A stretch of DNA of 64,000 nt from Candidatus Eiseniibacteriota bacterium (GTDB taxonomy: Bacteria; Eisenbacteria; RBG-16-71-46). Of the stretch, positions 1,735 through 19,588 are shown one piece after another. Positions within the stretch are counted from its first letter, which is position 1; each line of letters opens with the position of its first letter. The translations under genes were made by a program, and so were the position numbers. Where the stretch lies: contig JBGAOA010000006.1 in NCBI GenBank assembly GCA_044222065.1, forward strand, positions 23,129-87,128, read 5' to 3'. The notes below the pieces were generated by a model. It searched no databases, was not told the DNA's origin, and saw nothing but the letters and a program-made list of their open reading frames with translations.

Positions 1735-1853
1735 GAGTCGTCGTCCCTGAGCGGAGGTTCGTACGCGCGGCCACGGCGGGGCCGCCGGCGGCCACACGGG
1801 GTACCCGCAGTCTCGGCGGCCGGCGCCCGGGCTTGAGGGGCGCCGGCGGGGCG

Positions 1854-4800
1854 TCAGTCGCCCGTCGCGGTGAAGGCCGCCCAGTAGAACGGGTGGAGCG
1901 TGAGCCCGCGCGCGCGGCGCGCCGCGATCACGGCACGGCACGCGTCGCGCATCGCACCCCCCGCGGTCGGATCCGGGCTCGCGTAGAACGCGACCATCCA
2001 CTGGCGCGTCGTCTCGTCCGCGATCGGCCACAGGCTCGCGACCACGCAGCGCGCTCCGGCGAGGTGGAACGCGCGCCGCATGCCGGACACGGCGGCGCGG
2101 CTCCAGCGCTCGGCGACCCCCGACTGGCACGCCGACAGCACGACGCGTTCGGTGCCCTCGAGGTCGAGCGTCGAGACCTCGTCGGCCGTGAGCCAGCCGT
2201 CGTCGCCGTCGTCCGTGTCGGCGCTCGCGCGATTGGCGCCCGCGAACGCGAGCCACGCCTCGCGCCCGATCCACGGCGAGGCCGGCGGCGCGGGTGAGGG
2301 CGGAGTCGCGGGGCGCTTCGCCTTCGCGCGCTTCGTTTGCCCCGACGTCGCGGCCAACTCGCTCACGCCGCCGACGCCGCGCGCGGCGACGAGCGGCAGG
2401 CATCGGCGCCCGCCTCCTGCGAGAGCACGCCGTGCGTCGCGACGTGGATCGCGCGCCGGCCGTGCGCGAGCGCGCGGAAGCGCGCCTCGGTCGCCTCGGC
2501 GCCGAGCAGCAGTTCCGGCGTCGCCGCCGTGCGCGCCCGGCCAGAGCGCCGCGATCGCCTTCGCTTCCTCGCGCGCGCCCGGCAGGTCCGCGAGCGCGAG
2601 CGTTCCGTGCCCGCGGCCGCCGCCGGGAAGGCGCGCCGCGCCTGCGGTCGCGCGCGGCCTTCGGCGGCCGGGCCCGAGAAGTCGGGGTCGCCGACCGCGA
2701 GCAGCGTCCGCGATTCCCGACGGGTGCGCCGCGCGACCTGTGGCCGCGCCTGACGAGCACGCGGATCTGCCGATCGGATTCGGCGAAGGCCACGCCCTTC
2801 GAAGAAGGAGCGCGAGCCACGGCAGGTCGCGCGTCAGGCTGACGCGACGACGAACACCTCGCGGACTCGCCGAGGGCCGCGGCGAGCGGATCCCACAGGT
2901 TCGCCTCGCCCGCGGCGCGCGCCGCGCGCTCCGGCCGCGCGCGCGCCGGCCGCGTTCGCCGGCAGGCGGCGTCGAGAGCCGGGAGAGCCATGCCGAGATG
3001 CGCGCCGTGATCGCGTCCAGCGGAACCGAGACGCACGAGGCGCGGGTCCGCGCCGCCGGCGCGCGCAACGAAGGCGAGCAGCTCGAAGTGCTCCTCGCCG
3101 CCGGCCGCGGCCACGTGGTCGTCGAGCGCCTCGCCCGGCTGGAGCGCGGCGAGCACCGGCGCGAGCGGCAGAGGGCCGACGCGTTCGCCGCGCGCCGCGG
3201 CGAGGCGCGCATAGTCGCGCTCGGCGTCGTCCGCGAGCGCCCGGCTCTCTTCGAACCGCATCCGCGCGCCGGGCGAGCCGTCGTCGAACGTGCCGGCGAC
3301 GAGCCGCTGCGCGTGACGGCGCGCCGCGCCGACCCATCGCGCATGCGCGGCGGCGAGCGCCGAGTCGCCCGCGACCGACACGCGGCGCCGCGCCTCGATC
3401 GCCTCGCGCATGGCCCCGTGGCGCTGCAGCACGGCCTCCCACGCCGCCCGCACCTGGTCCGGCCGCGCCGGTTCGGCGAGCAGCGCGAGCGACTGCGAGG
3501 GATCCGCGGCGTCGTCTTCGTGCATCAGCGCCTCGCGGTCCGACAGCCCCTCGATCTCGAAGCGGAAGCGCTCGCGCGCCATGCCCTCGGCGATCGTCGC
3601 GTGGCGCCACGCGTCCGCGGCGCGACCCAGCCGGTGCTCCGCCTGGGCGCGCGTCTCGACGGCTTTCGGCCAGTTCTTGCTGCGTTCGAGACCCGTCGTG
3701 TCGGCCCACGCGTCCAGGGCGCGGCCGAGGCTGTCGGCGAACGCCGCGTCTGCCGGACCGCGCACGGTCTCGAAGAGCTGCACGGCGAGATCGAGGCGCG
3801 TCATGAGCGCCACGTCCGGCGCGCGCGCGGCGGCGAGCAGCCGCGTGCGCGCCTCGGCGTAGCGCCCCTCGTCGAGCTCGAGACCGACGCGCACGATCGT
3901 GCCGTAGGCGGCGATCGTCGGATCGGGATCGGGGGTGCGGGCGAGGATCTCATCCGCTTCGTCGAGCAGCGTGCGCGCCCGCGCCGCATCGCCGCCGCGT
4001 TCGCACGCGAGCGCGAGCGTGATGCGCTTGTGCACGAGCGACACGTGGGTGGGCGGCAGGCGCCGGGTCTCCATGGCGAGCACGGAGTCGAGGTCCGCCC
4101 GGGCCCGCGCGAAGTCGCCGAGCGCGATGCGTGCCGCGCCGAGCGTCGAGCGGTACGAGATCGCATCGGGCGAGGCCTCGCCTTCGCGTTCGACGCACGT
4201 CGAGAGCGCACGCTCGCCGAGCTCGACCGCGCGCGCCGGGTTGCCCGCGCGCCGCTCGAGCGTCGCGAGCGCATCGAGCGCCAGCTCGAGTCCGTGGAAC
4301 GACGAGCGGGCGTTCGCTCCCGCGATGCGGACGGCGTTCTCGAGCTCGGCGCGCGCGCTGTCGAATTCGGCGAGTTCGCCGTACGAGCGTCCGAGTTCCG
4401 TGCTCAGCACGCCGAGCCCCGGCGCGTTCGGCCCGAGCGCGCGCTCGATGAGCAGGGCCGAGCGGCGGAACGCCGGGATCGAAGCCGCGTAGTCCGAGCG
4501 CGCGCGCTGCGCCTGCCCCTCGCGGAAGTAGAGGTTGCGCAGCACCGAGTCGCTCGGCGGCGCCTCGGCCAGCGCGATCGCGATCGCGCGTCGTACCTGC
4601 TCGAGCGCGCGATCGCCGTCCTGCAGGTCCACGCGCAGCAGCGACGCGGTCGAGAGCGCGCGAATGAGGGTGCGCGTGTCGGGCGGGCGCAGCCGTTCGG
4701 CGACCGCGATCGCGCGATCGGATGCCGCGAGCACGACGCCGTCCGAGAAGTCGCCGAGCGAACGCCCGTCGAGCGTGAGCCGCGTGAGCGCGCGCGCCAG

Positions 4801-5010
4801 CTCGACGGAATCCACGGGCGTCTCGCGCTCGATCGCCTCGACGAGCGCGCGACACGCGCGCACGGCGTCGGTCCAGCGGCCCGACGACTCGAAATGGGCG
4901 AGCGAGTCCCACGGCGCGGGCGACGCCGGCGGCGCCGCGGCGCCGAGGGCGACGACCGGGACCGCGAGAGCGAGCGCGGCGGCGAGTGCCGCGATGGATC
5001 GGAGCGTCAC
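1854..5010 (-). CDS. Secreted TPR + CHAT (caspase-HetF-like) protease, several frameshifts between ~2400 and ~3050
   Basis: Signal peptide and TPR helices in the 781..5010 frame. HVATHG, GWLTADEV, VVLSACQSG, VASLWPIAD and HPFYWAAF lie in other frames, ending at 1854. Confidence 0.85.
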
Positions 5011-5202
5011 GCGGACTTCCTCCGGGTCGGCACGGAGCGGACCCGTGCGCCGGGCCGCGCCGGCACTATACGGCAGAGTCCGCGTCCGGCCTTGAGGGAA
5101 AGACCAAGGGGCGCGGATCTCTCGAGAGCCGACCGCGACGGCGGAGCGGAAACTGCGGTGGACCGCGCTCGTCGCGGGGCGCGCGAGCGGCGCGATTGCC
5201 TG

Positions 5203-7551
5203 CTACTCGCGCTTCACGATCGCGACGACGGCGCGCTCGGCGCCGAGTTCGGCGCGGCACAGGTAGAGGCCGGCGCGAACGGGCGCGCCCTCGTCGTCGC
5301 GACCGTCCCAGGCGAGCGATCGCACGCCGGCCTCGACCGGTCCGCGATGGATCGTGCGCACGCGGCGGCCGGCGAGATCGAACACCTCGACGCGTGCGAC
5401 GCCCGCCTGCGGCGCGAGCAGCGCGATGCGGATCGCGCCCGCGAACGGATTGGGTTCGGCGCGCAGCGCGAGCGTGCGCGGCGCGCTCGACGGCGGCACG
5501 CCCACGGTCGGCAGTGCGACCACGTAGGCGTAGTTCGCGGGGAACGGCAGCGCGTTCACTCCGGCCGGCGGCGGGCCTCCCGACGACTGCGTCGCTTCGC
5601 CGGCAGGCGCGCTCGGCGGGGAGTCCGGCTCGGGTCCGATGGGAATCACGCCGTACCACACCTGGCTCGAATCGCCGGGCGCCGCGCCGGGCGGCACCGG
5701 AACGTGTGCCGTGACCTTCACGTGCTGTCCCGCGGCGAGCGCGAGCGGCGCGCCCGAGTACGAGACACCCCAGCCGCGCGTGTCGAACGCCTGCGGCTGC
5801 AGGGTGACCGAAGCCGCGCCGTCGTTCGCGACGTCGAACGTGAGATCGGCGATCTGTCCCAGCTCGGCGCCGGCGTCTCCGTCCCACAGCACGAGCGGCC
5901 GCGGCACGCGATTCGCGGACTCGAAGCAGTCGCTCGCCCCGTGGGAGCCCGGACGATTCGACGCGAGGAAGACGCGCTCGAGCCCGATGTCCGCGCTCGG
6001 TCCCGTGTCGTCGAGCGGGCCGTTGAGCGCACTCACGTTCACCGGCGATCCCCACGAGGCCTTCACCACGTCGCCGCCCTTCGCGGGCAGCGCGCCGCTC
6101 ACGTTCTGCGACCAGACGTCGTAGCCGCCGAGCCCGCCTGGGCGATTCGACGCGTAGAGGAGCTGCGCGGGCTCGCCGTCGAGCGCCTTCGACACGCAGG
6201 GATCGCGCTCGTCGAACGGCGTGTTCACCGACGCGCCGAGGTTGACGCTCGCGCCCGGGTCATCCGTCGAGTCGATGGGCGCGACGTAGAGATCGAACCC
6301 TCCGCTGCCACCGGGCCGATTCGAGGCGAACAGCAGGTAGCCCAGGAACGCGTGCGGGCTCGTTTCGTCGGCGGACGTGTTCACGTTCGGCAGCGAGGTC
6401 ACCGAATCGAACGTGAGTGGCGCGCTGTGGCCCGCGCGGTACAGATCGAAGCCGCCGGAGCCGCCGGGCCGATTCGACGCGAAGTACAGCTCGGCATCCC
6501 CGATCCCTGAATTCGGCGCCAGTTCGTTGAAGGCGGAGTTCACGAGCGGCCCGCAGTTCACCGGACTCTTCCAGCGCGACTCGTCCGAACTCCACGTGAC
6601 GTACCAGATGTCGTAGCCGCCGAAGCCACCTGCGCGGTTCGAGGCGAAGTAGAGCCGCCCCGCGCGCGAGCCGAACTCGGCGCCATCGGCGACGTCGGGG
6701 TCGCGATCGTCGGCCGCGCTCATCGCGGAGTCGCACAGCGACGACGGCGCTTCGAACACCGGCGGCGGATCGAAGATCGCGTCGAAGTGGCCGTCGTCGT
6801 GCTCGAAGCTGAACCAGTGCGACAGCTCGTGCTTCAGGATCATGTAGTAGTCCACGGTGCCGATCGGGCACTTCGCGTCGGCGTTCGTGATGAAGCCGTC
6901 GCCGTCGGTGTCGCTCGGGTAGCACCAGGTGCGGCCGCCGCCCGGCTCGTCCTTGATCCACAGGATCGCGGACAGCGTGTCGTAGCGCGCCTTGAACTCG
7001 ACCTTCGCGCCGACGTCGTTCACGCCCTTCTCGAGGTCGAACGACATCAGGCCGAGCGTGTTCGCGGGCACACCGGGAATGAACCCGGACGGTTCGATCG
7101 CGACGTCGGCCGCGCCCTCGTCGTCGGTGAACCACGAGTCGTCCGTGATCGGGTCCTTCACGGGTTGACCCGGCGCGTGGAACGGCGAGGAATCGCCGTA
7201 GGCCTTGTCCATCGCCTTCTTCTCACCGGCCGACATCGAACGGCTCGACCTCGCGTGATCCTTCGCGTCGGAGAGATCGTGTCGCGGTCCCGCGGACGAC
7301 ACATGATCGTTCGTCTCGTTGCGGTTGCCCGTGCCGTTCGCGGCCGGGGCCTGGTCGTACATCACCCACTGCTTGAGCGCATAGCGCAGGCAGCGCTCCT
7401 GGTCGGCGCTCAGGTGGCCCTTGTAGATCTTGAACGGCTTCTTCGGCAGGTGCGCCTTCGCCATCTTCTGGGCGTGGGCGAGCGGCGCGAGCGCGGCGAG
7501 CAGCGTGGCGGCGAACAGCGCGTGACGAAGCATGCGAGCGGCGAATCGCAT
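5203..7551 (-). CDS. Secreted protein: zinc-metalloprotease-like motif, PD40 (WD40-like) repeats and FlgD-Ig-like C-terminal domain
   Basis: Signal peptide ending AHA. HELSHWFSFEH at 6799-6831. Repeated FASNRPGG.GG.D(L/I/V)(Y/W). C-terminal PNPF...WDGRDDEG...GLY. Confidence 0.8.
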   Translation of the reverse strand: MRFAARMLRHALFAATLLAALAPLAHAQKMAKAHLPKKPFKIYKGHLSADQERCLRYALKQWVMYDQAPAANGTGNRNETNDHVSSAGPRHDLSDAKDHARSSRSMSAGEKKAMDKAYGDSSPFHAPGQPVKDPITDDSWFTDDEGAADVAIEPSGFIPGVPANTLGLMSFDLEKGVNDVGAKVEFKARYDTLSAILWIKDEPGGGRTWCYPSDTDGDGFITNADAKCPIGTVDYYMILKHELSHWFSFEHDDGHFDAIFDPPPVFEAPSSLCDSAMSAADDRDPDVADGAEFGSRAGRLYFASNRAGGFGGYDIWYVTWSSDESRWKSPVNCGPLVNSAFNELAPNSGIGDAELYFASNRPGGSGGFDLYRAGHSAPLTFDSVTSLPNVNTSADETSPHAFLGYLLFASNRPGGSGGFDLYVAPIDSTDDPGASVNLGASVNTPFDERDPCVSKALDGEPAQLLYASNRPGGLGGYDVWSQNVSGALPAKGGDVVKASWGSPVNVSALNGPLDDTGPSADIGLERVFLASNRPGSHGASDCFESANRVPRPLVLWDGDAGAELGQIADLTFDVANDGAASVTLQPQAFDTRGWGVSYSGAPLALAAGQHVKVTAHVPVPPGAAPGDSSQVWYGVIPIGPEPDSPPSAPAGEATQSSGGPPPAGVNALPFPANYAYVVALPTVGVPPSSAPRTLALRAEPNPFAGAIRIALLAPQAGVARVEVFDLAGRRVRTIHRGPVEAGVRSLAWDGRDDEGAPVRAGLYLCRAELGAERAVVAIVKRE

Positions 7552-7732
7552 GACGGACCCCCGTGGGCGGCGACCGAGAGCGAGCCGGCATCGTCGTGCG
7601 AAGGGGAGACGCGGCGGCGGGCGCGGCGGAGGCTGAACGCGGGGAAGTCTCCGCCCGCCTTTGGCGCGAGGCAATGGGGAAGTTGCGCGTGGCGAGGACC
7701 GTCGAGCGGTCCTTACGGGCACCGGCGCCGCG

Positions 7733-8752
7733 CTACGCCGCGCGGACGATGCCCGCCGCTTCGAGCGCTTCGATCGCCGCGCGCATCGGCTCGACGAGCC
7801 GGCGCACCGCCTCCGCGTCGCCGAGGCTTCCCGGGCGTTCGAGCGTGAGGTCGGCCGTGCCGTCGCCATTGTCCACGAGCGACCACGACCAGCGCGGTGT
7901 GGAGGCGTGGAGCTGGAGCAGCGCGTCCGCGACGCCGGCGGTGGCGAACATCGCGCGCGCCGCGGCGGGATCGCTCGTGCGCAGCACGAGCGCGCGGTCG
8001 AGCGCCTCGTGCCCGATCGTGACGGGAGGCGTGGCCGCGAATTCGAGTGCGGCCGCGGCCGCGCGCGCGCGCGGATCGTCGGCGCGCTCGCGCAGCGCGT
8101 TCACGCCGGCGCGCATCGCGTGCGTCGCGAGGCTGCTCACGAGCGCGGGCTCGCGCCCCGAGCCGTGCGCCGAGAAGGCGAAGCCGCCGCGCATCGCGAC
8201 GCGCGCGCGTGCGCGCGTGATCGGCGAGCGGTGGTTCGACCACGAGCGCACGTCCACCGAACCGCGAGCGACGGGAACGCGGAGTGCCGGCCCGTTCGGC
8301 ATGCCGTACGTCGGATCGAGCTTCGAGTGGCCGACGACGGTGCCGCCAAGCGTCGTGGCGAGCGCGCTCGCCTGCGCGCGGTCGCCCGGCCGGCTGACGG
8401 GAGAGAGGACCGAGAGCAGCGCGCACGGCAGGAGCGGGACCGCCACGACCCAGCGCACCCACCCGTGCGCGAGGATCGCGTCCGCGATGGCGCGTCCGCC
8501 GACGTAGTCGAGCACGTGCGGATGGAACCAGACGAGGAGGGCCGCCCAGGTGATCACGCGGAACACGTCGAACAGGACGTAGATGAGCTTCTCGATGCGC
8601 TCGTTCTCTTCGGGCGTGCAATTGAGCGCGTGGAAGCGCGAGAGGTGCGGATAGCGCCTCGGTGCGCCGGGCGTGCCGGGGGCGGGGTCCTGGGCGGGCA
8701 GCGACATGGGAAGGGTATCGGCCGCGATGCCCTGGGAGGTGAGGCGCGCCAC
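7733..8752 (-). CDS. Hypothetical membrane protein (two N-terminal TM segments); start uncertain
   Basis: 339-aa ORF with GC-rich codon usage and hydrophobic segments. Lies directly downstream of the sigma54 activator. Confidence 0.6.
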   Translation of the reverse strand: MARLTSQGIAADTLPMSLPAQDPAPGTPGAPRRYPHLSRFHALNCTPEENERIEKLIYVLFDVFRVITWAALLVWFHPHVLDYVGGRAIADAILAHGWVRWVVAVPLLPCALLSVLSPVSRPGDRAQASALATTLGGTVVGHSKLDPTYGMPNGPALRVPVARGSVDVRSWSNHRSPITRARARVAMRGGFAFSAHGSGREPALVSSLATHAMRAGVNALRERADDPRARAAAAALEFAATPPVTIGHEALDRALVLRTSDPAAARAMFATAGVADALLQLHASTPRWSWSLVDNGDGTADLTLERPGSLGDAEAVRRLVEPMRAAIEALEAAGIVRAA

Positions 8753-8824
8753 TCGCGGGAGTCGTCGCGCGAGGGGAGTGGGGCGGAAGCCCGGGGGCTG
8801 CCGGCGCGCGGGGCCGGCGAAGCG

Positions 8825-11299
8825 CTATCGGAGCCCGTACCGCCGCATCTTGGCGAGCAGCGTCGTGCGCGGCATGCGGAGCGCGCGGGCGGCTTCGGCG
8901 CGCGAGCCGCGATGGGTCGCGAGCGCCTCTTCGATGCGGCGCTTCTCGACGCCGAGCATCTCGGTGCCGAAGTCCGAGGCGTCGTCGTCGCTGCCGCTCA
9001 GCGACAGATGCTCGATCCACTCGCCCTCGGCGACGAGCGCCGCCTGCTCGACGACGGCCTTCAGCTCGCGAACGTTGCCGGGCCATCGATAGCGCTCGAT
9101 CTGCCCGAGCGCGGCGCTCGTGAACTCGAGCCGGCGCCGCTCGCGCTCGCACGCGCGCGCGAGGAATTGCTGCGCGAGCAGCACGACGTCGTCGCCGCGT
9201 TCGCGAAGCGGCGGCAGCGTGACGACCCCGTGCGCGAGCCGGTAGAACAGGTCTTCGCGGAACGGGCCGCCGCCCTGGAGTTCGTCGCGCGTGCGGTTCG
9301 TCGCCGCGACGATGCGCGCGTCCACGTGCAGCAGCTTGACCGAACCGACGCGCCGCGACTCGCCCGACTCGAGGAAGCGCAGCAGCTTCGTCTGCAGATC
9401 GATCGGCATCTCGCCGATTTCGTCGAGGAACACCGTGCCACCGTCGCACACTTCGACGAGGCCGGGCTTGTCGCGCGTGGCGCCCGTGAACGAACCCGAC
9501 ACGTGGCCGAACAGCTCGCTCTCGATCATCTCGCGCGACATCGCGCCGCAGTTGATGGGGAAGTAAGCGCCGCTTCGGCCCGAGAGACGGTGAATGCCGG
9601 CGGCGACGAGTTCCTTGCCCGTGCCCGACTCACCGAGCACGAGGATCGGCGAGCGGGAGCGCGCGAGTTTCTCCACGGTGCCGAGCAGCTCCAGCATGCC
9701 GGGGCGACGCGTGAGCAGCCCGAAGGTCTCGTACGCCCAGCGCGTGCGCGCTTCGATCTCCGCGGTGGAGCGCCGCGCCACGGGGCGGCGGACTGGCGCG
9801 TCGGTCGTCACGAACGACGCCGGCACGCTCGACGGCGGCGTGCCGCCGGAGTGCGCGACGTTGAGTTCGGCGAAGCGCGCTTGTGTCTCCGCGAGCTTCG
9901 CCTTCGCGCCCATGCGTTCGAACAGGTCGCGAGCGAGGAGGTACGCCTCGAGCGCGCCGCGCGTGTCGGCGAATGCGCCGGCGTGCGGGCCGCGCAGCCA
10001 GTCACCGTAGGCCATCCAGAGCTTGCCCCACTCGTACGGCGTCTCGATGTCTTCGTAGAAAGCGAAGCCTTGCTCGAAGTGCTGCTTCGCTTCACCCGGG
10101 CGGCCCACGGCGGCCGCCGCGAGCGCGAGGACGCGATAGGTCGCGGCCTCCTCGTAGCGATCGCCGAGCTCGCGGCAGTGCGTGAGGCCGAGCTTGGCCT
10201 CGGCGTACGCCTCGTCGTGACGTGCGAGGAGGTAGAAGCACTCGGCGCGGCGCCGACGAAGCTCGGCGACGATGTCGCCCTTCGGCACGAGCGCCATCGC
10301 CTTCGGGAACACCGCGTCGTAGTGCTTCAGCGCGGCTTCAGCTTGCCCCTGCTCGAGGTGCACGTCACCGAGGAACTCGGAGGTGAGGAGGGCAGGGCGG
10401 GAGAGGGGAGAACGATCTTCAAGAGCCGCTGTTTCTCTAAGGCTTATGCTGGCGCTCGAGAAGTCGCCCCGGTGTATGTCGATCAGTGCGGTCGCCTGAT
10501 GAGCGTATCGAACGAAGCGATCATCTGCGTATGCCAGCGCCTGCTGAAGCGCCTTCCGCGCCAGGTTGCTCGCTTCGTCGAGACGCCCTCGCCTCCAGCT
10601 AAGCAGCGCGAGGCTCTGATCCACTCGCAAGAGCTGTACTCGATTCTGTAGTTGCTCCCACATGACTGCGGAAGTTCGGAGTTCTTCCTTCGCTTCGCCC
10701 CAGTGACACAACTGCTTGCTGATGAGCGCTAGGTTCCGGCGAACGTCAGCCTCAAGTCGAGCTTCCTGAGCACGTCTCCCGGACACCAGTGCCTCCAGAT
10801 ACCAGTTCTTGGCGGACTTCAATTCTCCCAATGTCCAGGCGATGTTGCCGAGTACAAGTGCAGCACGACCCAGTTCCCCAGTGTCAGGCAATTGAAGCAG
10901 TCGAGCGTGGGCACGCTGCGCATCGCACAAGGCAAGCGACACCTCTCCAGCTTTCCATCGAGCTGCCGCTCGCCAGACGAGAGGTAGTGCGCTTTGCGCT
11001 GACGCCGATTCGAGAGCTACTCCTTCGAGAAGCTCGTCTGCGAGTCGACACGCTTCCTCAGTCCGATTGAGGAAGACCAGTACTTCCAAGCGCAGCAGCT
11101 GGAGACGTGCTCGCCCGTTCGCGTTCGGCGAGTGAGAAGCGGCGCAAAGTAACTCAACGGCCTCTTCAAACTCGCCGCTGCCGCACAACCTCATTGCCAC
11201 ATCGCTCGCCCGATCGAGCACGCTAGCGTCTTCCGTTTGACCTGCTGACTCCGCAAGCAGGGAACGAAGAGCAGCCGCTTCGATCAAAAACGTGCTCAT
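8825..11299 (-). CDS. TPR-containing sigma54-dependent enhancer-binding protein (AAA+ and Fis-type HTH)
   Basis: [45 protein letters not shown] and a C-terminal HTH. The N-terminal ~490 aa are TPR-like helices with no receiver domain. Confidence 0.93.
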
Positions 11300-11598
11300 C
11301 GCGCACTTCTCCGCTCAGACGACACCATCGATCTCGACTGCGGGATCACGACTAGCCGGCCCGGAGCGACTTCGATTCGGACTGAGCCCAGATTGAACGC
11401 AAGCGGCCTTGCCGTGCGCTGCGCCCGAGTGTTGGGCTCATCGGGCTCCCCAAACGACCACGGCGCGACGAGCTTCTTCGGCTTCTCTCCTGGATACAGA
11501 ATGCTGTCCTCGCCCGCGGATGCGATCGTGGGGAGGACCAACCCGGCGGCCAGCATGAGAGCTGCGATCATCGCGGCCCATCGATGCGTGCGCTTCAT
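11296..11598 (-). CDS. Small secreted protein / putative signalling pro-peptide (100 aa)
   Basis: GAGGAG SD before GTG-ATG. Signal peptide MKRTHRWAAMIAALMLAAGLVLPTIASA, then GEDSILYPGEKPKKLVAPWSFGEPDEPNTR. Its stop overlaps the activator start (ATGA, 11296-11299). Confidence 0.75.
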   Translation of the reverse strand: MKRTHRWAAMIAALMLAAGLVLPTIASAGEDSILYPGEKPKKLVAPWSFGEPDEPNTRAQRTARPLAFNLGSVRIEVAPGRLVVIPQSRSMVSSERRSAR

Positions 11599-12191
11599 CA
11601 CTCGACTCCTCGGAGCTCTCGCTCCACCCGGTGCACTCCGTCGCCCGTCCTGAGCGGAGCGCGCTTCCAAGCAAAGAAACTCCGCCGGGGCACCGGGAGC
11701 AACGCCCTGACAGAGCTTCGCCGCGTGATTCTCGGGTCGTGATGAGGGGATCGCATCAGCCACCAGACCTGAGTCAAAGGTCAACGGGACGCGTCGAGGC
11801 TATTCGCCCGATCGCGAGCGGGTCAACGACATTTTGGTGCGTGCATCGCGACGCGCACTCGAACTCGGAAAACAATTCCTAGCGCCCGCAGCGCCACGAA
11901 TCGCGTGTTCGCCGCGCCAATCGGGGACGTCGCGAGCTGCCCTCGCCGCGAGACGTTGTGGCATTCGAGGCTGCCAGCCTGCCAGTCCCCGCGCAGCGAT
12001 TTCAGGGTCCCGAACGCCACTGAGGCCGTTTTCGCACGACTCCCAAAGGCTCACGCGACTTCGAGCCCCCCCGGCACAGCCCGTGCAGTCCTCGCTCCTC
12101 GCACCGTCCGGACCCGTGCGCGTTTGGCGCCCGCGAACCCGGCGACTCGACCTGGACCCGACTGGCCCGCGCGGCCGATGGAGCCTTCGCG

Positions 12192-13385
12192 ATGAGCACG
12201 ACGCACACCGAGAACCTCAAGTCCGGCTTCATGACGAAGCTCGTTCACGCCGGCGCCGACCACAGCGCGTACGGCAGCGCGGTCACGCCGATCTACCAGA
12301 CGTCCACGTTCGCGTTCCGGAACGCGCAGGAAGGCGCGGACCGCTTTGCCGGCAAGGCCGACGGCTACATCTATACCCGGCTCGGGAACCCGACCATCCA
12401 CGCGCTCGAGTCGTGCGTCGCCGAACTCGAAAAGGGCGTGGGCGGCGTCGCGACCAGCTCCGGCATGGGCGCGGTGCAGTCGGTGTACATGGCGCTGCTC
12501 GCCTCGGGCAGTCACGTCGTCAGCACGGCGTCGGTCTATGGCCCCTCGCGCGGGCTGCTCGAAGACCACTTCGCGCGCTTCGGCGTGTCGGCGACGTTCG
12601 TGGACACCTCCGACGTGAAGAACCTCGAACGCGCGATGCGTCCCGAGACGAAGCTCGTGTACGTCGAGTCGCCCTCCAATCCCGCCATGCAGGTCACCGA
12701 CATCGCGGCGGCGGCGAAGATCGCGCACGCGCACGGCGCGCGGCTCGTCGTGGACAACACGTTCGCCTCGCCCTACCTGCAGCAGCCGCTCGAACTCGGC
12801 GCCGACGTCGTGCTGCACTCGGTCACGAAGTTCATCAATGGTCACGCCGACGTCGTCGGCGGCCTGCTCGTCGCGAAGGACCCGGAGCTGCTCAAGCGCC
12901 TCCGCTCGCTCATGATCGCGACGGGCTGCAACATGGACCCGCACCAGGCGTTCCTCGTCCATCGCGGAATCAAGACGCTCGCGCTCCGGCTCGAGCGCGC
13001 GCAGTGCACGGCGGGCGAGATCGCGGCGTGGCTCGAGGCGCGGCCCGAAGTCGCGTGGGTGCGCTACCTCGGTTTGCCGTCGCACCCGCAGTACGAACTC
13101 GCGAAGCGCCAGATGCGCGGCCCGGGCGCGATGATCAGCTTCGAGATGAAGGGCGGGTACGCGGCCGGCGAGAAGCTCATGAACCGCGTGAAGCTCGCCA
13201 CCCTCGCCGTGTCGCTCGGCGGCGTCGAGACGTTGATCGAGCACCCGGCTTCGATGACGCACGCCAAGATGCAGCCGGCCGAGCGGCTCAAGGCCGGGAT
13301 CAGCGAGGGGCTCGTGCGTTACTCGGTCGGCATCGAAGACCTGGACGACTTGGTCGCCGACCTGCGGCAGGCGCTCGAGGGCTGA
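12192..13385 (+). CDS. megL: PLP-dependent trans-sulfuration enzyme, probably methionine gamma-lyase
   Basis: PIYQTSTF, YIYTRLGNPT, SSGMGA, ESPSNP, VDNTFASP, HSVTKFINGHADV (PLP lysine), AVSLGGVETLIEHPASMTH. Confidence 0.85.
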   Translation: MSTTHTENLKSGFMTKLVHAGADHSAYGSAVTPIYQTSTFAFRNAQEGADRFAGKADGYIYTRLGNPTIHALESCVAELEKGVGGVATSSGMGAVQSVYMALLASGSHVVSTASVYGPSRGLLEDHFARFGVSATFVDTSDVKNLERAMRPETKLVYVESPSNPAMQVTDIAAAAKIAHAHGARLVVDNTFASPYLQQPLELGADVVLHSVTKFINGHADVVGGLLVAKDPELLKRLRSLMIATGCNMDPHQAFLVHRGIKTLALRLERAQCTAGEIAAWLEARPEVAWVRYLGLPSHPQYELAKRQMRGPGAMISFEMKGGYAAGEKLMNRVKLATLAVSLGGVETLIEHPASMTHAKMQPAERLKAGISEGLVRYSVGIEDLDDLVADLRQALEG

Positions 13386-13525
13386 CGGGAGCCGCCCCAG
13401 GCGCGGCTCCGCGCCCGCCGTTCAACACGATCGCCTTCCGTCCGATACTTTCCCCGAGCGAGTCTCGCCGTCGGCGGGGTCGTGCGCGGGCGTCGCGACG
13501 CCCGCAGGACTCGAGGGATCGAGCC

Positions 13526-14860
13526 TTGGAACACGCATTCAATTGCCTGCGCGCCTGGGTGGTGACGGCCGACATGGGGCTCGGTCACCAGCGCGCCGCG
13601 CACGCGCTCGCGCACCTCGCGCAGGACGGCGTGCTCACGGCCGGCAGCCCCGACGTGACCGATCCGGACGAGGCGCGCTTCTGGCGCCGGCTGACGTGGT
13701 CGTACGAGTTCCTGTCGCGCGCGCGGGAAATCCCGCTCGTCGGCAAGCCCGTGTTCGGGCTGCTCGACGCGATGCTCGCGATCCCGCCGTTCTATCCGCT
13801 CCGCGACCTGTCGCACCCGTCGCCGAACAATCACATCGTGGATCACCTGATCCGCCAGGGGCTCGGCCGCTCGCTGCTCGAGCGCCTGCACACGTGCACG
13901 CTGCCGGTGATCACGACGTTCTACGCGCCGGCGCTCGTCGCCGACCGCGCGCACTCGGAGCCGGTGTACTGCGTCATCTGCGACGCGGACCTGAACCGCG
14001 TGTGGGTCGCGTCGAAGGCGCGCGAGAGCCGCATCCGCTACTTCGCGCCGTGCGGGCGCGTCATGCGGCGGCTGCGGCAGTACGGCGTGCCCGACGACCG
14101 CATCTTCATCACCGGGTTCACGCTGCCGCGCGCCAACGTCGGCGGCACCAGCATGGAGGTGCTGAAGGCGGACCTCCTCGCGCGCCTCGGCCGGCTCGAC
14201 CCGCAGGGACGCTTCACGAGCGTCTACGGCGGCACCGTGCGCGAGCTGCTCGGCGAGCGCCCCCAACCCTCGGGCGGACGCGAGCGGGTCACGGTGACGT
14301 TCGCCGTCGGCGGCGCGGGCGCACAAACCGAGATCGGGCTGATGCTCGCGCAGGCGCTCAAGCCCGGCATCCTCGACCGGCGCTTCCGGCTCGTGCTCGT
14401 GTGCGGCGTGAACCGCCTCGTCGAGCGCGTGTTCACGGAGTTCGTCTCGCGCACCGGCCTCGAGAGCGCGCTCGGAGACGGCGTGCTCGTCGTGCGCGAG
14501 GACTCGAAGCCGGCGTACTTCGACCGCTTCAACCTCCTCATGCGCGAGACCGACATCCTGTGGACCAAGCCGAGCGAGCTGTCGTTCTACTCGGCGCTCG
14601 GCATCCCGATCGTCATGGCGCCGCCGCTCGGTTCGCAGGAGGACAAGAACCAGCGCTGGCTCATGGACAAGGGCTGCGCGCTGCCGCAGTACACGCCGAT
14701 CCACGCGCTCGAATGGCTCACGGACATGCTCAAGGACGGCGTGTTCGCCGAGAAGGCGCTCTCGGGTTTCATCAAGAACCGCAAGCTCGGCGTGTACAAG
14801 ATCGAGGAAGTGCTCGAGACCGGCGCGATGAGCCGCGAGACGCACCCGCTGCGGCGCTGA
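13526..14860 (+). CDS. GT-B-fold glycosyltransferase-like protein (MGDG synthase/MurG-like)
   Basis: TTG start after GAGGGA. ADMGLGHQRAA N-terminal motif, VGGAGAQ, and DILWTKPSELSFYSALGIPIV...GSQEDKN. Confidence 0.65.
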   Translation: MEHAFNCLRAWVVTADMGLGHQRAAHALAHLAQDGVLTAGSPDVTDPDEARFWRRLTWSYEFLSRAREIPLVGKPVFGLLDAMLAIPPFYPLRDLSHPSPNNHIVDHLIRQGLGRSLLERLHTCTLPVITTFYAPALVADRAHSEPVYCVICDADLNRVWVASKARESRIRYFAPCGRVMRRLRQYGVPDDRIFITGFTLPRANVGGTSMEVLKADLLARLGRLDPQGRFTSVYGGTVRELLGERPQPSGGRERVTVTFAVGGAGAQTEIGLMLAQALKPGILDRRFRLVLVCGVNRLVERVFTEFVSRTGLESALGDGVLVVREDSKPAYFDRFNLLMRETDILWTKPSELSFYSALGIPIVMAPPLGSQEDKNQRWLMDKGCALPQYTPIHALEWLTDMLKDGVFAEKALSGFIKNRKLGVYKIEEVLETGAMSRETHPLRR

Positions 14861-15065
14861 CGCCCGGCGCGAGCGCGCGCACGCGATTCCCTGTCCACTT
14901 CGCCACAAGGTCACCGCAATCTCTGGAACTTCCGGGGCCCGCGGGCGGGTAAGGTCGTGGGCGAGCGCGGCGGTGCACGCGGGCGGGGCCCGCGCGCCGC
15001 CGTCGCGGGAGGCCGGGCGATCCCGGTTCCCTCACGGCCGCAGGGAGCGGCTCACCGGAGGATGC

Positions 15066-16412
15066 ATGTCCTCGATTCCGTCCGAGGTCGCCGCGGCGCC
15101 GAACGCCGGCCGCGATCAGGCGCTGCGCGTCGCGATCCTGTTCCTGCTCGTGCTCGCGCTCCAGATTCCCTCGCTGTTCATGAGCTTCCTCGTCAACGAG
15201 CGCCGGCACCGACGCGACGAAGCCGCCGCGGAGATCGCATCCAAGTGGGGCGCGGCGCAGACGATCGCCGGCCCCGCGCTCATCGTGCCGTGGACGCGCC
15301 GCTGGAGCGACGTGAACGACAAGGGCGTCCGCCGCGAGCGCGAGTCCCGCGAGCGGCTCGTGCTGCTGCCCGAGTCGCTGCACGTCGCGTCGCGGCTCGA
15401 CACGCAGACGCGCCGGCGCGGCATCTACGAGGTGCCGGTCTACCGCCTCGACGCGCGAATCGCGGGGCGGTTCGAGTCCGTGGACCTCGCGAAGCTCGGC
15501 GTGCCGCCCGAAAGCGTGGACTGGCCGCGCGCGGTGCTCGCGATCGGGATCAGCGACGTGCGCGCGCTGCAGGACCAGGTGCGCCTCGAGTGGGACGGGC
15601 GCTCGCTCGCGTGCGAGCCGGGGACCGAGGACACCGCCGAGCTCGGCGCCGGCATCCACGCCGAGCTGCCGCTCGACGGCCCGCCGTGGGGGCGCACGTT
15701 CGAGCTTCCCGTGAGGCTCAACGGAACGCGCGGCGCCTACTTCACGCCGTTCGGCCGGCAGACCACGGTCGAACTCACCGGCGCCTGGAAGGACCCGAGC
15801 TTCCAGGGCAACTGGCTGCCGGTGACGCGTGCGCTCTCGGACACGGGCTTCCGCGCCGCGTGGAGCATCCCGTCGCTCGGCCGCAACTACCCGCAGGCGT
15901 GGCTCACCTCGCCCGGCGGGCCCGAGGCGATCCAGCGGTCGGCGTTCGGCGTGGACCTCGTGCCCGCGATCGACGCCTACCGCCTGTGCGAGCGCACGGT
16001 GAAGTACGAACTGCTGTTCTTCGTCCTGACCTTCACGGCGTTCTGGCTGCTCGAAGTGCTCGGCGGCCGGCTGCTGCACCCGATCCAGTACGTGCTCATG
16101 GGCGCGGCGCTGTGCCTGTTCCTGATGCTCGAGCTGTCGCTGTCGGAGCACCTCGGCTTCGGCGGTGCGTACGCGCTCGCGAGCGTCGCCGTCGTGGGGC
16201 TCATCGCGTTCTACGCGAGTGCCGTGCTCGGATCGCGCCTGCGCGCCGCACTCGTTGGCGCGGGGCTCGGGCTCCTGTACGCGTGCCACTACGTCGTGCT
16301 GCGGAACGAGGACTACGCGCTGCTGCTCGGCTCGCTGCTGTTCTTCGGCGCGCTCGTCGCGGTGATGGCCGCGACGCGGCGCATCAACTGGTACGGCACG
16401 GCGCGGCGCTGA
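15066..16412 (+). CDS. creD: Inner membrane protein CreD
   Basis: LVNERR...WGAAQTIAGP, RRRGIYEVPVY, PSFQGNWLP, YRLCERTVKYELLF, HPIQYVLMG, LSLSEHLGF, EDYALLLGS, TRRINWY. Confidence 0.93.
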   Translation: MSSIPSEVAAAPNAGRDQALRVAILFLLVLALQIPSLFMSFLVNERRHRRDEAAAEIASKWGAAQTIAGPALIVPWTRRWSDVNDKGVRRERESRERLVLLPESLHVASRLDTQTRRRGIYEVPVYRLDARIAGRFESVDLAKLGVPPESVDWPRAVLAIGISDVRALQDQVRLEWDGRSLACEPGTEDTAELGAGIHAELPLDGPPWGRTFELPVRLNGTRGAYFTPFGRQTTVELTGAWKDPSFQGNWLPVTRALSDTGFRAAWSIPSLGRNYPQAWLTSPGGPEAIQRSAFGVDLVPAIDAYRLCERTVKYELLFFVLTFTAFWLLEVLGGRLLHPIQYVLMGAALCLFLMLELSLSEHLGFGGAYALASVAVVGLIAFYASAVLGSRLRAALVGAGLGLLYACHYVVLRNEDYALLLGSLLFFGALVAVMAATRRINWYGTARR

Positions 16413-16505
16413 CGCGCGGAACGCTCGGGCGGCGGGCGGCGTCCGGCGCGACGTCCGCCCCGCCGCCGCGCCCGCGCCGTGCGCTCGCGGCGGCCACCGC
16501 GGGGC

Positions 16506-19349
16506 TCAGCGCCAGGAGTACGTGAACACCGCCTGCGCGTAACGGCTCAGCGCGCGGTCGCGCGTGTCCTGCACGTAGGTCTCGGTGAGGCTGCGGTTCA
16601 CGCTGCGGTTCGCGTCGAGGACGTCGGTCACGGTGAAGCGCAGTTCGCCGCGCTCGCCCTTCAGGAACTTCTTCCCGAGCGTCGTATTCCACATCACGAC
16701 GTCCTGCCCGTATGCCGAGGGCACGCCGCTCTGCAGCGCGTGCGTCAGTTCCTGCCGCACGACGAAGCCCTTGCCGACGACGGAATTGAAGCGGATCGCG
16801 GCGTTGTGGCTGAAGTAGTCGCCCGAGCTGCTCGTGCTGAGCGTGTTGCGCGCGATGTTGTAGCTCGCGAAGTACGACACGGTGAAGTCGAGGTTCTGGC
16901 TGATGTTGCTCGACAGCACCGCGCCGCTGCGGAGCGCCCACGTCGTGTTGAGGTTCGTCACGTCGTTGATCTTCGTCGGCGTGCGGTTGTACGACCCGCC
17001 GCCGTTGAGGGACAGCACGCTCTTGAGCAGCTTGAGCGGCCGGCTCACGACGCCGAACAGGTTTCCGTTCCACGACTCGCCCAGGTTCACGGGCCGCGTG
17101 AGCTGCGTGCCGCGCGCGAGGAACACGCCGTCCACGGTCGTGTCGGCGAGCGCCGTGAACGTCGCGTTCGCGATCGAGCGGGCCGTGCGCGACACGTTCG
17201 CGAACACGAAGCGGCTCTTCGACGCCATCGGCTCGGCTTCGGAGAAGCGCAGCGAGAAGTTGTTCGTGTAGGTCGGCCGCAGCGAGGGGTTCCCGGTCGT
17301 GAGCGACAGCGGGTTCGAGTTGTTCACGACGTTCTGCAGCTGCCCGATGTTCGGCGCGGCGGCCGACGTGCTCCACGCGAGTCGGAGGCTCCGGCGGTTC
17401 GCGAAGTTCCCCGTGAGCGTCACGGAGGGCAGTACGTCGCCGTACGTGCGGTCGATGCGCTGCGCGCCGGGGAAGGTCTGCTCGGATTCGAGCCGCTGGC
17501 TCTGGGCCGAGAGGTTCGTGAGCCAGCGCCACGGCCCCTTCGTGACGAGCATCGCGAGGCCGCCGTTCTGCACCACGTTGCGGCTCGCGTACACGTTCGA
17601 GAGCGCCGAGTCGGGGCGGGTGTACGCGCCGCTCGCCGGATCGAGCGCGAACGTGCGCGCGTCGGCGTCGCTCTTCGAGAACGACGGGTTGTAGATCGCC
17701 TGCAGCTGCACGCTCTTCGACACCGGCTCGGTGAACGCCACGCGCGCCGACCACGAATCCGTCGTCGTCGTCGAGTTCGAGCGCTGGTCGAGCGTGTCGC
17801 GCGTCGTGGTCGAGCCCTCGTAGTTCGTCGTGAGCGAGTACTGGCCGCCGCCGCCGTCGCGGTCGTTGCGCGAGGAGTTCAGGTCCGCGCTCACGTTGCG
17901 GCCGCGCTTCGCGAAGCGGTGGCGAAGCGTCAGGCGTGCGGAGAGGTTGCCGCCGTCGTTCGTGTCGGTCACGCGGCTCTCCGCCGCGCCGATCACGCCT
18001 CCGATCGTGGACAGGTTCGCGGCGGTGCCGAAGTTCGTCGCGTCGGTGCGCTGGAAGTAGGCGCGCGGCTGGAAGATCACCGAGTTGAGCGAGTCCGGAG
18101 TCCACTCGAGACGCGCATCCACGCGCTGGTTCGCGCTGCGATTGCCCGTCGTCGTGAGCTGGCGGTAGAACGCGAGCGAGTCCTGCGGCGGCACGTACTC
18201 GCGATCGAGCGACTGCAGGTTCTCGGTGTCGGTGTCGTTCACGAACACGCTCGAGCTGACCTGCACCTTCTTGCCCCACTGGCCGACGTAGTTGAAGCCG
18301 CCCGAGTGCGTCGTCGCGATGCCCGGCTGCTGGTCCACGAAGAAGCTGCTCGGATCGAATCCGCCGCCACCGCCGCCGCCCATGCGGATCATCTGCGGGC
18401 GGCCGCCGCCGGGACGGAAGCCGCCCGGACCGCCGTGCATGATGATGCGCGGGCCGCCGCCGCCGCCGCCCGAGCCGCTCATCGAGCCGAACAGGTCCTG
18501 CGGCGAGAAGTTCCGCTGGTTGATGTTGTTCGAGAGCCCGATCAGCGTGAAGCGCGTCGCGCCGCGCACCCAGGTCGCGTTTCCGCCCGTCTGGTAGCGC
18601 TCGTCGTCGCCGCCGCCCGCGTACACCTTGCCGAACGTCGCCTTCTGGTCGCGCAGGATGAAGTTCATCGTGCGCTGCGACTGCGTGTCGTCGAAGCCGC
18701 TGAACTCGGCCTGGTCGCTCATGCGGTCGTACACCTGGATGCGGTCCACGACCTCTGCCGGCAGGTTGCGCATCGCCGCCGTCGGATCGCTGCCGAAGAA
18801 CGGACGCCCGTTGACGAGCACCTGCTGCACGTTCTCGCCCTGCGCCTTCACCTGCCCGTTCTCCAGCGTCACTCCGGGCAGCTTCTGCACGAGGTCCTCG
18901 GCCGTCGCGTCGCGATGGGTCTTCACCGCGCTCGCCCGGTACTCGGTCGTGTCGGCCTTCTGCGTCGCCGGCGCCGGCGACTCCTGCACCGTGATGGGCG
19001 CGAGCTCGATCGAACGCGGCGCGAGCTTCACGTCGCCGAGGTCGTGGTCGGGCTTCGTCACGCGCACGACCTGGTGGAGCGTCTCGTAGCCGAGCCGGGA
19101 CGCCTCGAGCCGGTAGCTGTGCCTGCCGAGGCCCTTGAACTCGAACGCGCCGTCGTCACCGCCGGTCGCGCGCCGCACGTCGGACGTGTCGGCGAAGTTC
19201 GTGAGCTTGATCGCGACCCCGGGCACGGCCACGCCCGTCGACGCGTCCTTGAAGCGGCCGCGCAGCCTCGTGGTCTGGGCGGAAGCGAGCGAGGGAAGGA
19301 CGAGCAGCGCGCAGGCCGCCACGAGCCAGTGGGAGCGGACGGGCATCAC
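16506..19349 (-). CDS. TonB-dependent-receptor-like outer-membrane beta-barrel with N-terminal carboxypeptidase-regulatory-like domain
   Basis: Signal peptide. DTTEY.A...EDLVQKLPGV, VLVNGRPFFG.DP, DRIQVYD, GNPSLRP and terminal FTYSWR. Confidence 0.88.
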   Translation of the reverse strand: MMPVRSHWLVAACALLVLPSLASAQTTRLRGRFKDASTGVAVPGVAIKLTNFADTSDVRRATGGDDGAFEFKGLGRHSYRLEASRLGYETLHQVVRVTKPDHDLGDVKLAPRSIELAPITVQESPAPATQKADTTEYRASAVKTHRDATAEDLVQKLPGVTLENGQVKAQGENVQQVLVNGRPFFGSDPTAAMRNLPAEVVDRIQVYDRMSDQAEFSGFDDTQSQRTMNFILRDQKATFGKVYAGGGDDERYQTGGNATWVRGATRFTLIGLSNNINQRNFSPQDLFGSMSGSGGGGGGPRIIMHGGPGGFRPGGGRPQMIRMGGGGGGGFDPSSFFVDQQPGIATTHSGGFNYVGQWGKKVQVSSSVFVNDTDTENLQSLDREYVPPQDSLAFYRQLTTTGNRSANQRVDARLEWTPDSLNSVIFQPRAYFQRTDATNFGTAANLSTIGGVIGAAESRVTDTNDGGNLSARLTLRHRFAKRGRNVSADLNSSRNDRDGGGGQYSLTTNYEGSTTTRDTLDQRSNSTTTTDSWSARVAFTEPVSKSVQLQAIYNPSFSKSDADARTFALDPASGAYTRPDSALSNVYASRNVVQNGGLAMLVTKGPWRWLTNLSAQSQRLESEQTFPGAQRIDRTYGDVLPSVTLTGNFANRRSLRLAWSTSAAAPNIGQLQNVVNNSNPLSLTTGNPSLRPTYTNNFSLRFSEAEPMASKSRFVFANVSRTARSIANATFTALADTTVDGVFLARGTQLTRPVNLGESWNGNLFGVVSRPLKLLKSVLSLNGGGSYNRTPTKINDVTNLNTTWALRSGAVLSSNISQNLDFTVSYFASYNIARNTLSTSSSGDYFSHNAAIRFNSVVGKGFVVRQELTHALQSGVPSAYGQDVVMWNTTLGKKFLKGERGELRFTVTDVLDANRSVNRSLTETYVQDTRDRALSRYAQAVFTYSWR

Positions 19350-19588
19350 GGGTTCCTCGATGGAGAGCGACGGATTCGGAAGCCGGGGACTCTAGCGGAA
19401 CGCGCCGGCGCACGTCGCGCCGGCGTGCGCCGCGATCGCGGACCCGGCGACCCGCCGGCGGCCGGTCGGGCGAGTAGACGCGACGGAGCGTGGCAGGGTT
19501 GGGTCCCCGGAGGATGAACGCGGCCCGGAACGCCGCGGGCGCGGGAGAGGCCTCCCGCGCCCGCGCGCCGTTCCGGATGCGTCGCGAC

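Follow-up and report, generated by a model that had tools for sequence, protein, structure and literature searches.

A small protein with a predicted signal peptide is co-inherited with a TPR-input sigma-54 activator in Candidatus Eisenbacteria

The DNA analysed here, which we call the window, is a stretch of 64,000 nucleotides from contig JBGAOA010000006.1 of a Candidatus Eiseniibacteriota bacterium. Its minus strand carries a small open reading frame (ORF) for a predicted exported protein, directly followed by the gene for a sigma-54 activator that has tetratricopeptide repeats (TPRs) as its input region. This module is real and undescribed, and our comparisons establish the two genes as a pair that is co-inherited, co-transcribed, often translationally coupled and duplicated as a unit. 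Orthologues, paralogues and loci throughout the phylum retain both the pairing and the G(D/E)PD core of the small protein, which makes the two genes a co-inherited pair; together they form the sole conserved unit at these loci. Eisenbacteria are a diderm phylum with no cultured member. In the titles and abstract openings covered, we found no account of a sigma-54 activator that has a TPR input and is in strict partnership with an exported small protein, and nothing on Eisenbacteria together with sigma-54, in agreement with the first-pass annotation of this DNA, which knew of no description of such a system.

Conservation of the gene pair

The small ORF occupies positions 11296-11598 (window numbering throughout; both genes are on the minus strand) and encodes 100 amino acids followed by TGA. 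Its ATG at 11598 is preceded, at a distance of 7 nt, by the Shine-Dalgarno sequence GAGGAG (11606-11611), and a GGAGG-type word is kept at this place in the orthologue alignment. The G+C content at third codon positions (GC3) is 0.74 in the small-ORF frame, compared with 0.63 and 0.56 in the other two frames. In the part of the frame that could be added by starting at an upstream TTG it is 0.58, and the ATG at 11598 is therefore taken as the start. The TGA overlaps the ATG of the activator gene (8825-11299; 824 aa plus stop) as ATGA. The first-pass annotation had described a 100-aa ORF with a strong Shine-Dalgarno sequence, a Sec-type signal peptide and the motif WSFGEPDEP, overlapping the start of the activator, and all of these elements are confirmed.

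With the TPR region as the query, an orthologue was found in 24 of 36 sampled genomes of the same family (E 1e-54 to 1e-122), and the closest match beyond that family has an E value of 3.7e-28. A scan of named genomes contributed 33 further orthologous loci, with one weak match (L104, 30%, in a Ruminococcus record) left out. This gives 58 orthologous loci in all, 16 of them without upstream sequence and 42 with at least 250 nt of it. At 37 of these 42 loci, a same-strand signal-peptide ORF with the motif G[DE]P[DEV] ends at the activator start; the ORFs are 86-119 aa long, with the motif at residues 35-69. When identical sequences from two overlapping collections are collapsed, the 37 loci reduce to 30 distinct small proteins, which are only 17-33% identical to that of the window. 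M1, G50 and P52 alone are invariant in their alignment, and D53 is at least 90% conserved. In addition, L035 and L086, which share one sequence, have a motif ORF (MGEPDVPP) that is recognisable by eye, with no ATG passing the filter, and L091, which is cut by a contig end, shows VGDPD by eye.

The overlap between the small ORF and the activator gene measures 4 nt in 16 of 28 distinct pairs, 8 nt in 5 and 10-19 nt in 4, and in the remaining 3 the start lies no more than 8 nt past the stop. The in-frame ATG or GTG nearest to the stop was taken as the activator start, and these overlap counts are therefore upper bounds.

The genome of the window contains three TPR activators, namely that of the window, one of an ~815-aa type on contig C64 and one of a ~1040-aa TPR-GAF type on contig C7. 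A frame break in the AAA+ domain splits the C64 activator (G000:C64:47844-50245; L190:3845-6243), so that its two parts lie in different frames on either side of a TGA-containing piece. This is either a pseudogene or an assembly error; the small ORF ahead of it is intact (C64:47429, 122 aa). For a broader view of the ~815-aa TPR and ~1040-aa TPR-GAF types, 20 loci of relatives and four more were taken together. A signal-peptide ORF of 94-125 aa is found 7-106 nt 5' of the activator at 23 of these 24 paralogue loci; at L124 the small ORF overlaps the activator start by 16 nt. The motif in the 23 ORFs is G[DE]PD in 22 and GSPDE in L049. A profile scan of named genomes yielded another 24 Eisenbacteria-type loci, four of them identical to earlier ones, and the ORF is present at all 24, with GDPD in 17 and WAGG(S/T)PDETL in 7. 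An upstream signal-peptide ORF with a G(E/D)PDxP-like motif, which the first-pass annotation had proposed to look for in homologues and paralogues of the activator, is thus a consistent feature of orthologous, paralogous and further loci. The proposal thereby withstands two of the refuting conditions named in that annotation, namely homologous activators without an upstream secreted ORF and a motif that is not kept.

In five large genomes from more distant families, the motif reads GDPD at L160, L161 and L164, GDPI at L163 and GDPN at L165. The signal-peptide ORF is present with the motif absent at L166, L167 and L175, and no such ORF was found by the filter at L162 and L177. The TPR activator family itself occurs in 205 of the 206 genomes of the phylum, the single miss being a 66%-complete genome, with two to eleven activator-family matches per genome. 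This tally, the sample of 36 genomes above and the search of 60 relatives described below include the unpublished genome G038; no other result here draws on it.

The type of small ORF is specific to these activators far more than chance would give. Across all six frames of the 4.2-Mb genome of the window, open frames that are 60 aa or longer contain G[DE]PD 189 times, and only 3 of these instances come 28-95 residues after a signal-peptide-like start; all 3 of these ORFs lie directly 5' of the three TPR activators of the genome. Beyond the phylum, the weak TPR matches L152 and L155, from records of Desulfobacterales and Deltaproteobacteria, are not preceded by an ORF of this kind, and the record of L153 does not extend upstream. 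Similar loci (L102, L103, L126, L142-L144, L149) also turn up under the titles Methylomirabilota, Verrucomicrobiia, Limnocylindria, Hyphomicrobiales, Dormiibacterota, Bacteroidota and Omnitrophota; they are 34-62% identical to the activators of Eisenbacteria, and one of them has a small protein identical to that of an Eisenbacteria-family genome. The appearance of these loci under other phylum names probably reflects mis-binning or a naming error rather than gene transfer.

The small protein and the TPR sensor

The N-terminus of the small protein, MKRTHRWAAMIAALMLAAGLVLPTIASA|GED, has the basic, hydrophobic and A-x-A parts of a signal peptide when read as sequence, and the layout for Sec export and signal peptidase I cleavage is complete, with MKRTHR as n-region, WAAMIAALMLAAGLVLP as h-region and TIASA|G as small-x-small site. 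The hydrophobic stretch reaches a Kyte-Doolittle 19-aa maximum of 2.2. The 30 orthologues share this layout, with proline and small-x-small sites recognised by eye. These features suggest that the small protein carries a Sec-type signal peptide of 28 residues (11515-11598), with cleavage predicted at IASA|GED. The motif WSFGEPDEP spans residues 47-55, and the core conserved in the orthologue alignment, GEPDEP, spans residues 50-55 (11434-11451).

The mature protein is predicted to be largely unstructured. The AlphaFold2 model (predicted template modelling score 0.29) has a helix at residues 3-21, no secondary structure from 22 to 65 and a low-confidence three-stranded beta-meander at residues 66-86. 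The 45 residues after the motif are not like a transmembrane segment (Kyte-Doolittle maximum 1.08). A PEP-CTERM or GlyGly-CTERM sorting signal was considered for this protein and rejected, as these 45 residues contain no transmembrane helix; the NCBIfam sorting-domain models match none of 10 small proteins. An uncleaved hairpin membrane protein was likewise rejected on account of the cleavage-type sites and the lack of a second hydrophobic segment. The small proteins belong to no Pfam or NCBIfam family (10 members scanned with NCBIfam), and for that of the window Pfam gives nothing but a sub-threshold match of the signal peptide to DUF4148. In the ESM Atlas, all leads for the small protein of the window stay below 0.9, and a small protein of the ~815-aa group finds unnamed Eisenbacteria clusters at 0.90-0.93. 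Public collections already hold the exact 100-aa product and the product of the C64 paralogue, both called as unnamed proteins.

What the small proteins have in common is confined to the signal peptide and the motif. A similarity search with that of the window finds no paralogue in its own genome, and in 60 relatives it gives one match below E 1e-3, which is located 5' of an orthologue. In the orthologous group, mean pairwise identity is 0.29 in the N-terminal part (0.20 when shuffled), 0.33 in the 28 residues around the motif (shuffled 0.26) and 0.213 after the motif (shuffled 0.201); a comparison of the core with the post-motif part gives 0.45 vs 0.08. The ~815-aa group has an N-terminus of the form M-x-R-F-x-x-N-R-W-W with a hydrophobic region (0.37 vs 0.21 shuffled), a core GDPD-x-P-x-G-x-x-K (0.50 vs 0.26 shuffled) and, by eye, a second small A/V-G-D-G word. 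The last 22 residues in this group are basic and amphipathic (...WRLQVVLQSLRLWFVRF), often ending in RF, with an identity of 0.28 vs 0.22 shuffled. In the distant families the small proteins have a hydrophobic C-terminal helix, which in L160 comes soon after GDPD.

The activator looks like an intact sigma-54 enhancer-binding protein, judging from its domains and motifs. The AAA+ sigma-54 interaction domain and lid (8999-9712; Pfam Sigma54_activat and AAA_lid_14) include a Sigma54_activat (PF00158) match over residues 530-690 with E 1.2e-55, and motif searches place the Walker A sequence GESGTGKE at residue 556 (9634-9611) and the Walker B sequence FLDE at residue 624 (9430-9419). GAFTGA is the consensus of the loop with which enhancer-binding proteins contact sigma-54, and the GSFTGA of this activator (residues 602-607; 9496-9479) is one conservative change away from it. 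A Fis-type helix-turn-helix (HTH) domain, HTH_8, follows at residues 784-821 (8837-8950; Pfam E 2.1e-10). The genome has rpoN, whose DNA-binding domain is at G000:C96:963-1439 (E 1.5e-62). NCBIfam models match the AAA+/HTH part alone and stay under all equivalog cut-offs. The activator has no membrane-spanning segment (Kyte-Doolittle 19-aa maximum 1.04).

The sensor domain comprises residues 1-485 (9845-11299) and, in an AlphaFold2 model built with 27 orthologues, consists of 24 helices that form 12 TPR-like pairs over residues 3-483, with a mean predicted local distance difference test score of 92. The Pfam TPR_12 and TPR_10 matches span residues ~145-416. Pfam finds no receiver domain in the activator and no sensor domain besides the TPR solenoid, and no histidine kinase or receiver occurs among the genes scanned from 5 to 19951. 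The activator was thus correctly described in the first-pass annotation as having a TPR input with neither a receiver domain nor a kinase nearby. In Foldseek, the sensor domain matches the TPR domains of LGN/Pins best (E 1e-9, TM-score to target at most 0.70), followed by other long TPR solenoids; Rap and NprR are absent among the matches listed (ranks to 50). A profile search of the PDB gives LGN/Pins (1e-13), kinesin light chain (1e-9) and designed pentatricopeptide repeat proteins, with weaker matches to RapJ (1e-6), NprR (1e-6 to 1e-5) and RapF (5e-3). The sensor domain is therefore of the generic peptide-binding TPR_12 type and does not belong to the RRNPP clade of peptide receptors in particular.

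Residues 1-300 of the TPR region are variable among orthologues and residues 301-480 are conserved, the mean pairwise identity being 0.27 for residues 1-140, 0.31 for 141-300 and 0.63 for 301-480. Variable small proteins beside variable N-terminal TPRs (0.27-0.31) form the pattern that would be expected of diversifying partner surfaces. Over 9800-11598, GC3 amounts to 0.71 (TPR part) and 0.74 (small ORF), compared with 0.91 in the AAA+/HTH part (8825-9799) and 0.92-0.94 in the adjoining genes, and from this contrast codon bias is relaxed in the fast-evolving parts.

A candidate ligand and receptor, and the alternatives

The pairing, the lack of another sensor domain and a fast-evolving, unstructured partner with an invariant core make the small protein, as input to the TPRs, the simplest mechanism. 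We tentatively propose this reading as our best guess, in which the small protein or a fragment of it acts in a form resembling RRNPP signalling, through export, processing and return. The pair would then be a self-contained bicistronic signal-input cassette of Candidatus Eisenbacteria, with a sigma-70-type promoter and a leader of ~190 nt driving a Sec-exported pre-protein and a coupled cytoplasmic sigma-54 activator. The cognate ligand of the TPRs would be the small protein itself or an extended piece of it around the G(D/E)PD-x-P core. Once bound, it would govern how the AAA+ ring assembles or its ATPase activity, and through this the sigma-54-dependent transcription of targets elsewhere; each pair in a genome would owe its own specificity to the variable flanks of the core and to the variable N-terminal TPRs. 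Export and cleavage are suggested by sequence features; we infer that processing, a return to the cytoplasm and binding follow, as well as whether regulation is positive or negative. Co-folding of TPR residues 1-490 with the mature small protein (residues 28-100), with alignments, gave an interface score (ipSAE) of 0.00 in two runs made without controls, which speaks neither for nor against binding.

The RRNPP(A) systems of Bacillota (Rap-Phr, NprR-NprX, PlcR-PapR, PrgX, AimR-AimP) place a cytoplasmic TPR-type receptor beside a small gene with a Sec signal, often overlapping it. The pair described here resembles them in having a TPR-type cytoplasmic receptor, an adjacent exported small gene, several paralogous pairs and a fast-evolving small partner. 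However, the output is an AAA+ sigma-54 activator with a Fis HTH rather than an XRE-type HTH or a Rap phosphatase domain, and the TPR region is N-terminal, with 12 repeats that are nearer to LGN and kinesin light chain than to Rap or NprR. The small gene lies upstream rather than downstream and encodes 95-125 aa, one core motif is common to all pairs, and the host is a diderm phylum outside Bacillota. Of the features that define the RRNPP family, the TPR-type cytoplasmic domain and the adjacent exported small gene are present here, and the N-terminal XRE or Rap effector and homology to the family are absent. Because the effector domain and the domain order differ and no specific homology is seen, the activator is not a member of the RRNPP family. 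The first-pass annotation had suggested a peptide-receptor pair analogous to RRNPP and wired to sigma-54; the analogy gains from the conserved pairing and motif, whereas membership in the family fails on output domain, gene order and taxon.

The usual switches of sigma-54 activators are phosphorylation, small molecules or cytoplasmic anti-activators. PspF-PspA, NifA-NifL and HrpS-HrpV are similar to the present pair in that a receiver-less sigma-54 activator is set by a separately encoded partner from the same or a neighbouring operon. Their partners, however, are cytoplasmic or peripheral proteins in contact with the AAA+ or GAF domain, whereas the pair described here combines a partner that has a signal peptide with an activator that has a large TPR input; Pfam and NCBIfam detect no PspA, NifL or HrpV family in the small protein. 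LuxO of Vibrio likewise wires cell-density signals to a sigma-54 activator in a diderm, but it is a phosphorelay response regulator fed by membrane kinases, and its NCBIfam match to the activator covers the AAA+ part alone. With no receiver and no kinase nearby, the input here would be direct, unlike that of LuxO. The proteins that match the sensor domain best in structure and profile, LGN/Pins and kinesin light chain, bind extended and often acidic or aromatic peptides in the inner groove; they differ in being eukaryotic scaffolds, in having 8 or 6 repeats and in not being linked to transcription. This resemblance is one of repeat type and is not evidence of a common function.

Several observations weigh against the small protein as TPR ligand. 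The core is common to all paralogous pairs in a genome, and therefore cannot itself give specificity; it could equally be a protease, sorting or metal-binding site. At 95-125 aa the small proteins exceed the typical length of RRNPP pro-peptides, and the amphipathic (~815-aa group) or hydrophobic (distant families) C-termini suggest a membrane-associated protein rather than a short diffusible peptide. The pairing also has exceptions, since no such upstream ORF was found at two orthologous loci, L033 and L089, or at the paralogous L047; at L089 the space from leader to activator is ~270 nt shorter than in relatives. The motif decays or is missing in distant families. Finally, no sigma-54 promoter with up to 2 mismatches lies 5' of the operon or just 3' of the activator, and the lack of one 5' of the operon means that no autoinduction loop is visible.

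Some of these features would be better accommodated if the two genes were co-expressed without contact between their products. The small protein would then work in the periplasm or envelope, or exert its effect by way of a membrane component, the TPRs would sense another protein or a metabolite, and the linkage would serve co-regulation only. The amphipathic or hydrophobic C-terminal segments and the low-complexity linkers rich in G, D and P do resemble those of an envelope-associated protein, a GDPD core in all paralogues fits a common processing or metal site, and TPR domains mostly bind folded partner proteins. A 4-nt overlap and strict one-to-one pairing, in three paralogue groups and throughout the phylum, would nevertheless be unusual for independent genes. 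Moreover, no third conserved gene accompanies the pair, the neighbours varying by sub-clade, and the activator has no other sensor domain. On balance we consider this explanation somewhat unlikely.

A second alternative dispenses with return of the exported protein. The unprocessed pre-protein would hold the activator off (or on) in the cytoplasm, and its removal by Sec export would report export capacity or the state of the envelope. Translational coupling would supply a fixed stoichiometry at the site of synthesis, a solenoid of 12 repeats could enclose a long unstructured chain, and the M-x-R-F-x-x-N-R-W-W N-terminus of the ~815-aa group is conserved beyond the need of a signal peptide. FlgM and sigma-28 follow the same logic, though not via Sec, and no precedent for such an export-coupled switch through Sec is known to us. 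Several paralogous pairs per genome are hard to justify for the monitor of a single pathway, and the canonical small-x-small cleavage sites argue for ordinary export, so that we regard this switch as quite improbable. Finally, spurious ORFs are plentiful in high-GC genomes and the C-terminal half of the small proteins shows no sequence conservation, but the idea that the small ORF is a chance open frame within what is only the 5' leader of the activator has negligible probability and is effectively refuted by an ORF of 86-119 aa kept with its signal peptide and motif in 30 orthologues at ~25% identity, by the conserved Shine-Dalgarno sequence, by GC3 being highest in its frame and by the occurrence of such ORFs, genome-wide, only ahead of TPR activators.

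Returning to the small protein as TPR ligand, a bolder version would have the phylum as a whole possess a multi-paralogue family of directly peptide-gated sigma-54 activators, each switched by a fragment of the exported pro-protein encoded just 5' of it. Peptide-type signalling between cells or to the cell itself, of the RRNPP kind, would have been invented independently, the core serving as a common docking or processing element and the variable flanks and N-terminal TPRs as 'dialects'. We hold this extension to be unlikely. Cytoplasmic TPR receptors for exported peptides are, to our knowledge, essentially confined to Bacillota and their mobile elements. If the two proteins are ligand and receptor, they would represent a new input class for enhancer-binding proteins and the first RRNPP-like logic in a diderm, in a simple unit of one peptide and one ATPase. 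If they are not, the GDPD core would still mark an unknown processing or recognition step in exported proteins specific to the phylum. Either way, the pair provides an anchor for two unnamed protein families.

Promoter, leader and neighbouring genes

The operon has a conserved predicted sigma-70-like promoter on comparative evidence, with a -35 box TTGACC (11826-11821) and a -10 box TAGCCT (11802-11797) separated by an 18-nt spacer (11797-11826, minus strand). The pattern TTGAC-N16-19-TAnnnT occurs 197-244 nt 5' of the small-ORF ATG in 21 of 30 orthologue upstream regions and 146-246 nt 5' of it in 13 of 23 paralogue upstream regions, compared with a mean of 0.1 and never more than 2 in base shuffles. 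A scan of 8500-12300 with a generic sigma-70 consensus called 0 promoters; it misses this one because the -10 box is weak. Just 5' of the -35 box, a terminator-like hairpin with a T-rich tail (11880-11896, minus strand) is consistent with a separate transcription unit; 1 such hairpin was found, with 2.2 expected by chance.

The predicted 5' leader of ~190 nt (11599-11790, minus strand) contains conserved words and a hairpin. The word TCCCCTCA lies at 11750-11743, and TTCCCCTC/TCCCCTCA is found 130-152 nt 5' of the ATG in 11 of 30 orthologues; TTCCCCTCA is conserved in the leaders of orthologues and TCACCCCGTATCCA in those of the ~815-aa group. A GGAGC-N4-GCTCC hairpin (11612-11625, minus strand) sits immediately 5' of the Shine-Dalgarno sequence GAGGAG, and about half of the aligned orthologue leaders have a CGGAG-N6-7-CTCCG word 5' of theirs. 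This hairpin may be a translational control element. Rfam has no match to the leader, and RNAalifold gives no consensus structure for it.

Contigs from four RNA libraries of three studies match the region with 0 differences at 8813-9025, 9395-9628, 10520-10728, 11112-11273 and 11482-11748, the last of these spanning the start of the small ORF and 150 nt of the leader. They leave most of the stretch uncovered and speak to presence only, and not to absence, strand, ends or level; because DNA carry-over is possible, they are weak evidence of transcription.

Sigma-54-like sites with up to 2 mismatches in the window number 5, compared with ~11 expected by chance. The only candidate close to the pair, CGGCACAGCCCGTGCA (12072-12087, plus strand), is 105 nt 5' of the ATG of the divergent gene for a Cys/Met pyridoxal phosphate (PLP) enzyme (12192-13385). 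In the whole genome there are 32 sigma-54 promoter matches with at most 1 mismatch, and many strong sites also have xTGC at -12. Five of the 32 lie ~180-740 nt 3' of an enhancer-binding-protein gene on the same strand (C37:5617, C64:50544, C121:12590, C126:75437, C7:45230), and a site with 2 mismatches, C7:44719, lies ~230 nt 3' of such a gene. Both paralogues of the activator of the window thus have downstream sites of this kind (C64:50544, C7:45230). Past these sites are the genes for a cytochrome c (C64) and for an fn3 protein and a DUF4384 protein (C7).

Pfam scans of 78 genes at 14 loci show neighbours that are specific to sub-clades. Neither the protein encoded at 7733-8752 nor the Cys/Met enzyme has a tblastn match at E 1e-3 at the orthologue loci. 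In one sub-clade of orthologues, two genes for M16-family (insulinase-like) peptidases lie directly 5' of the small ORF on the same strand (L081:1569-5320, L083:1155-4864, L086:1167-4939); L089, which also lacks the small ORF, has a single called M16 gene (1769-3358). These genes may encode a candidate processing protease or may be mere synteny. A divergent NFACT gene is present at L077, L080, L100 and L102. Genes of the methionine and S-adenosylmethionine cycle recur near orthologue loci, with S-adenosylmethionine synthetase and/or S-adenosylhomocysteine hydrolase at L072, L083 and L086, and in the window the gene divergent from the pair is that of the Cys/Met PLP enzyme.

Elsewhere in the window, the minus strand encodes another large TPR signalling protein, of 1409 aa, at 784-5010 that combines TPR_12 repeats with a C-terminal HDOD domain and has no signal-peptide/GDPD ORF upstream. 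The genes for an outer-membrane beta-barrel, a TonB-type protein, PD40/OmpA-like proteins and proteins with type IX secretion system tails, also in the window, fit a diderm cell.

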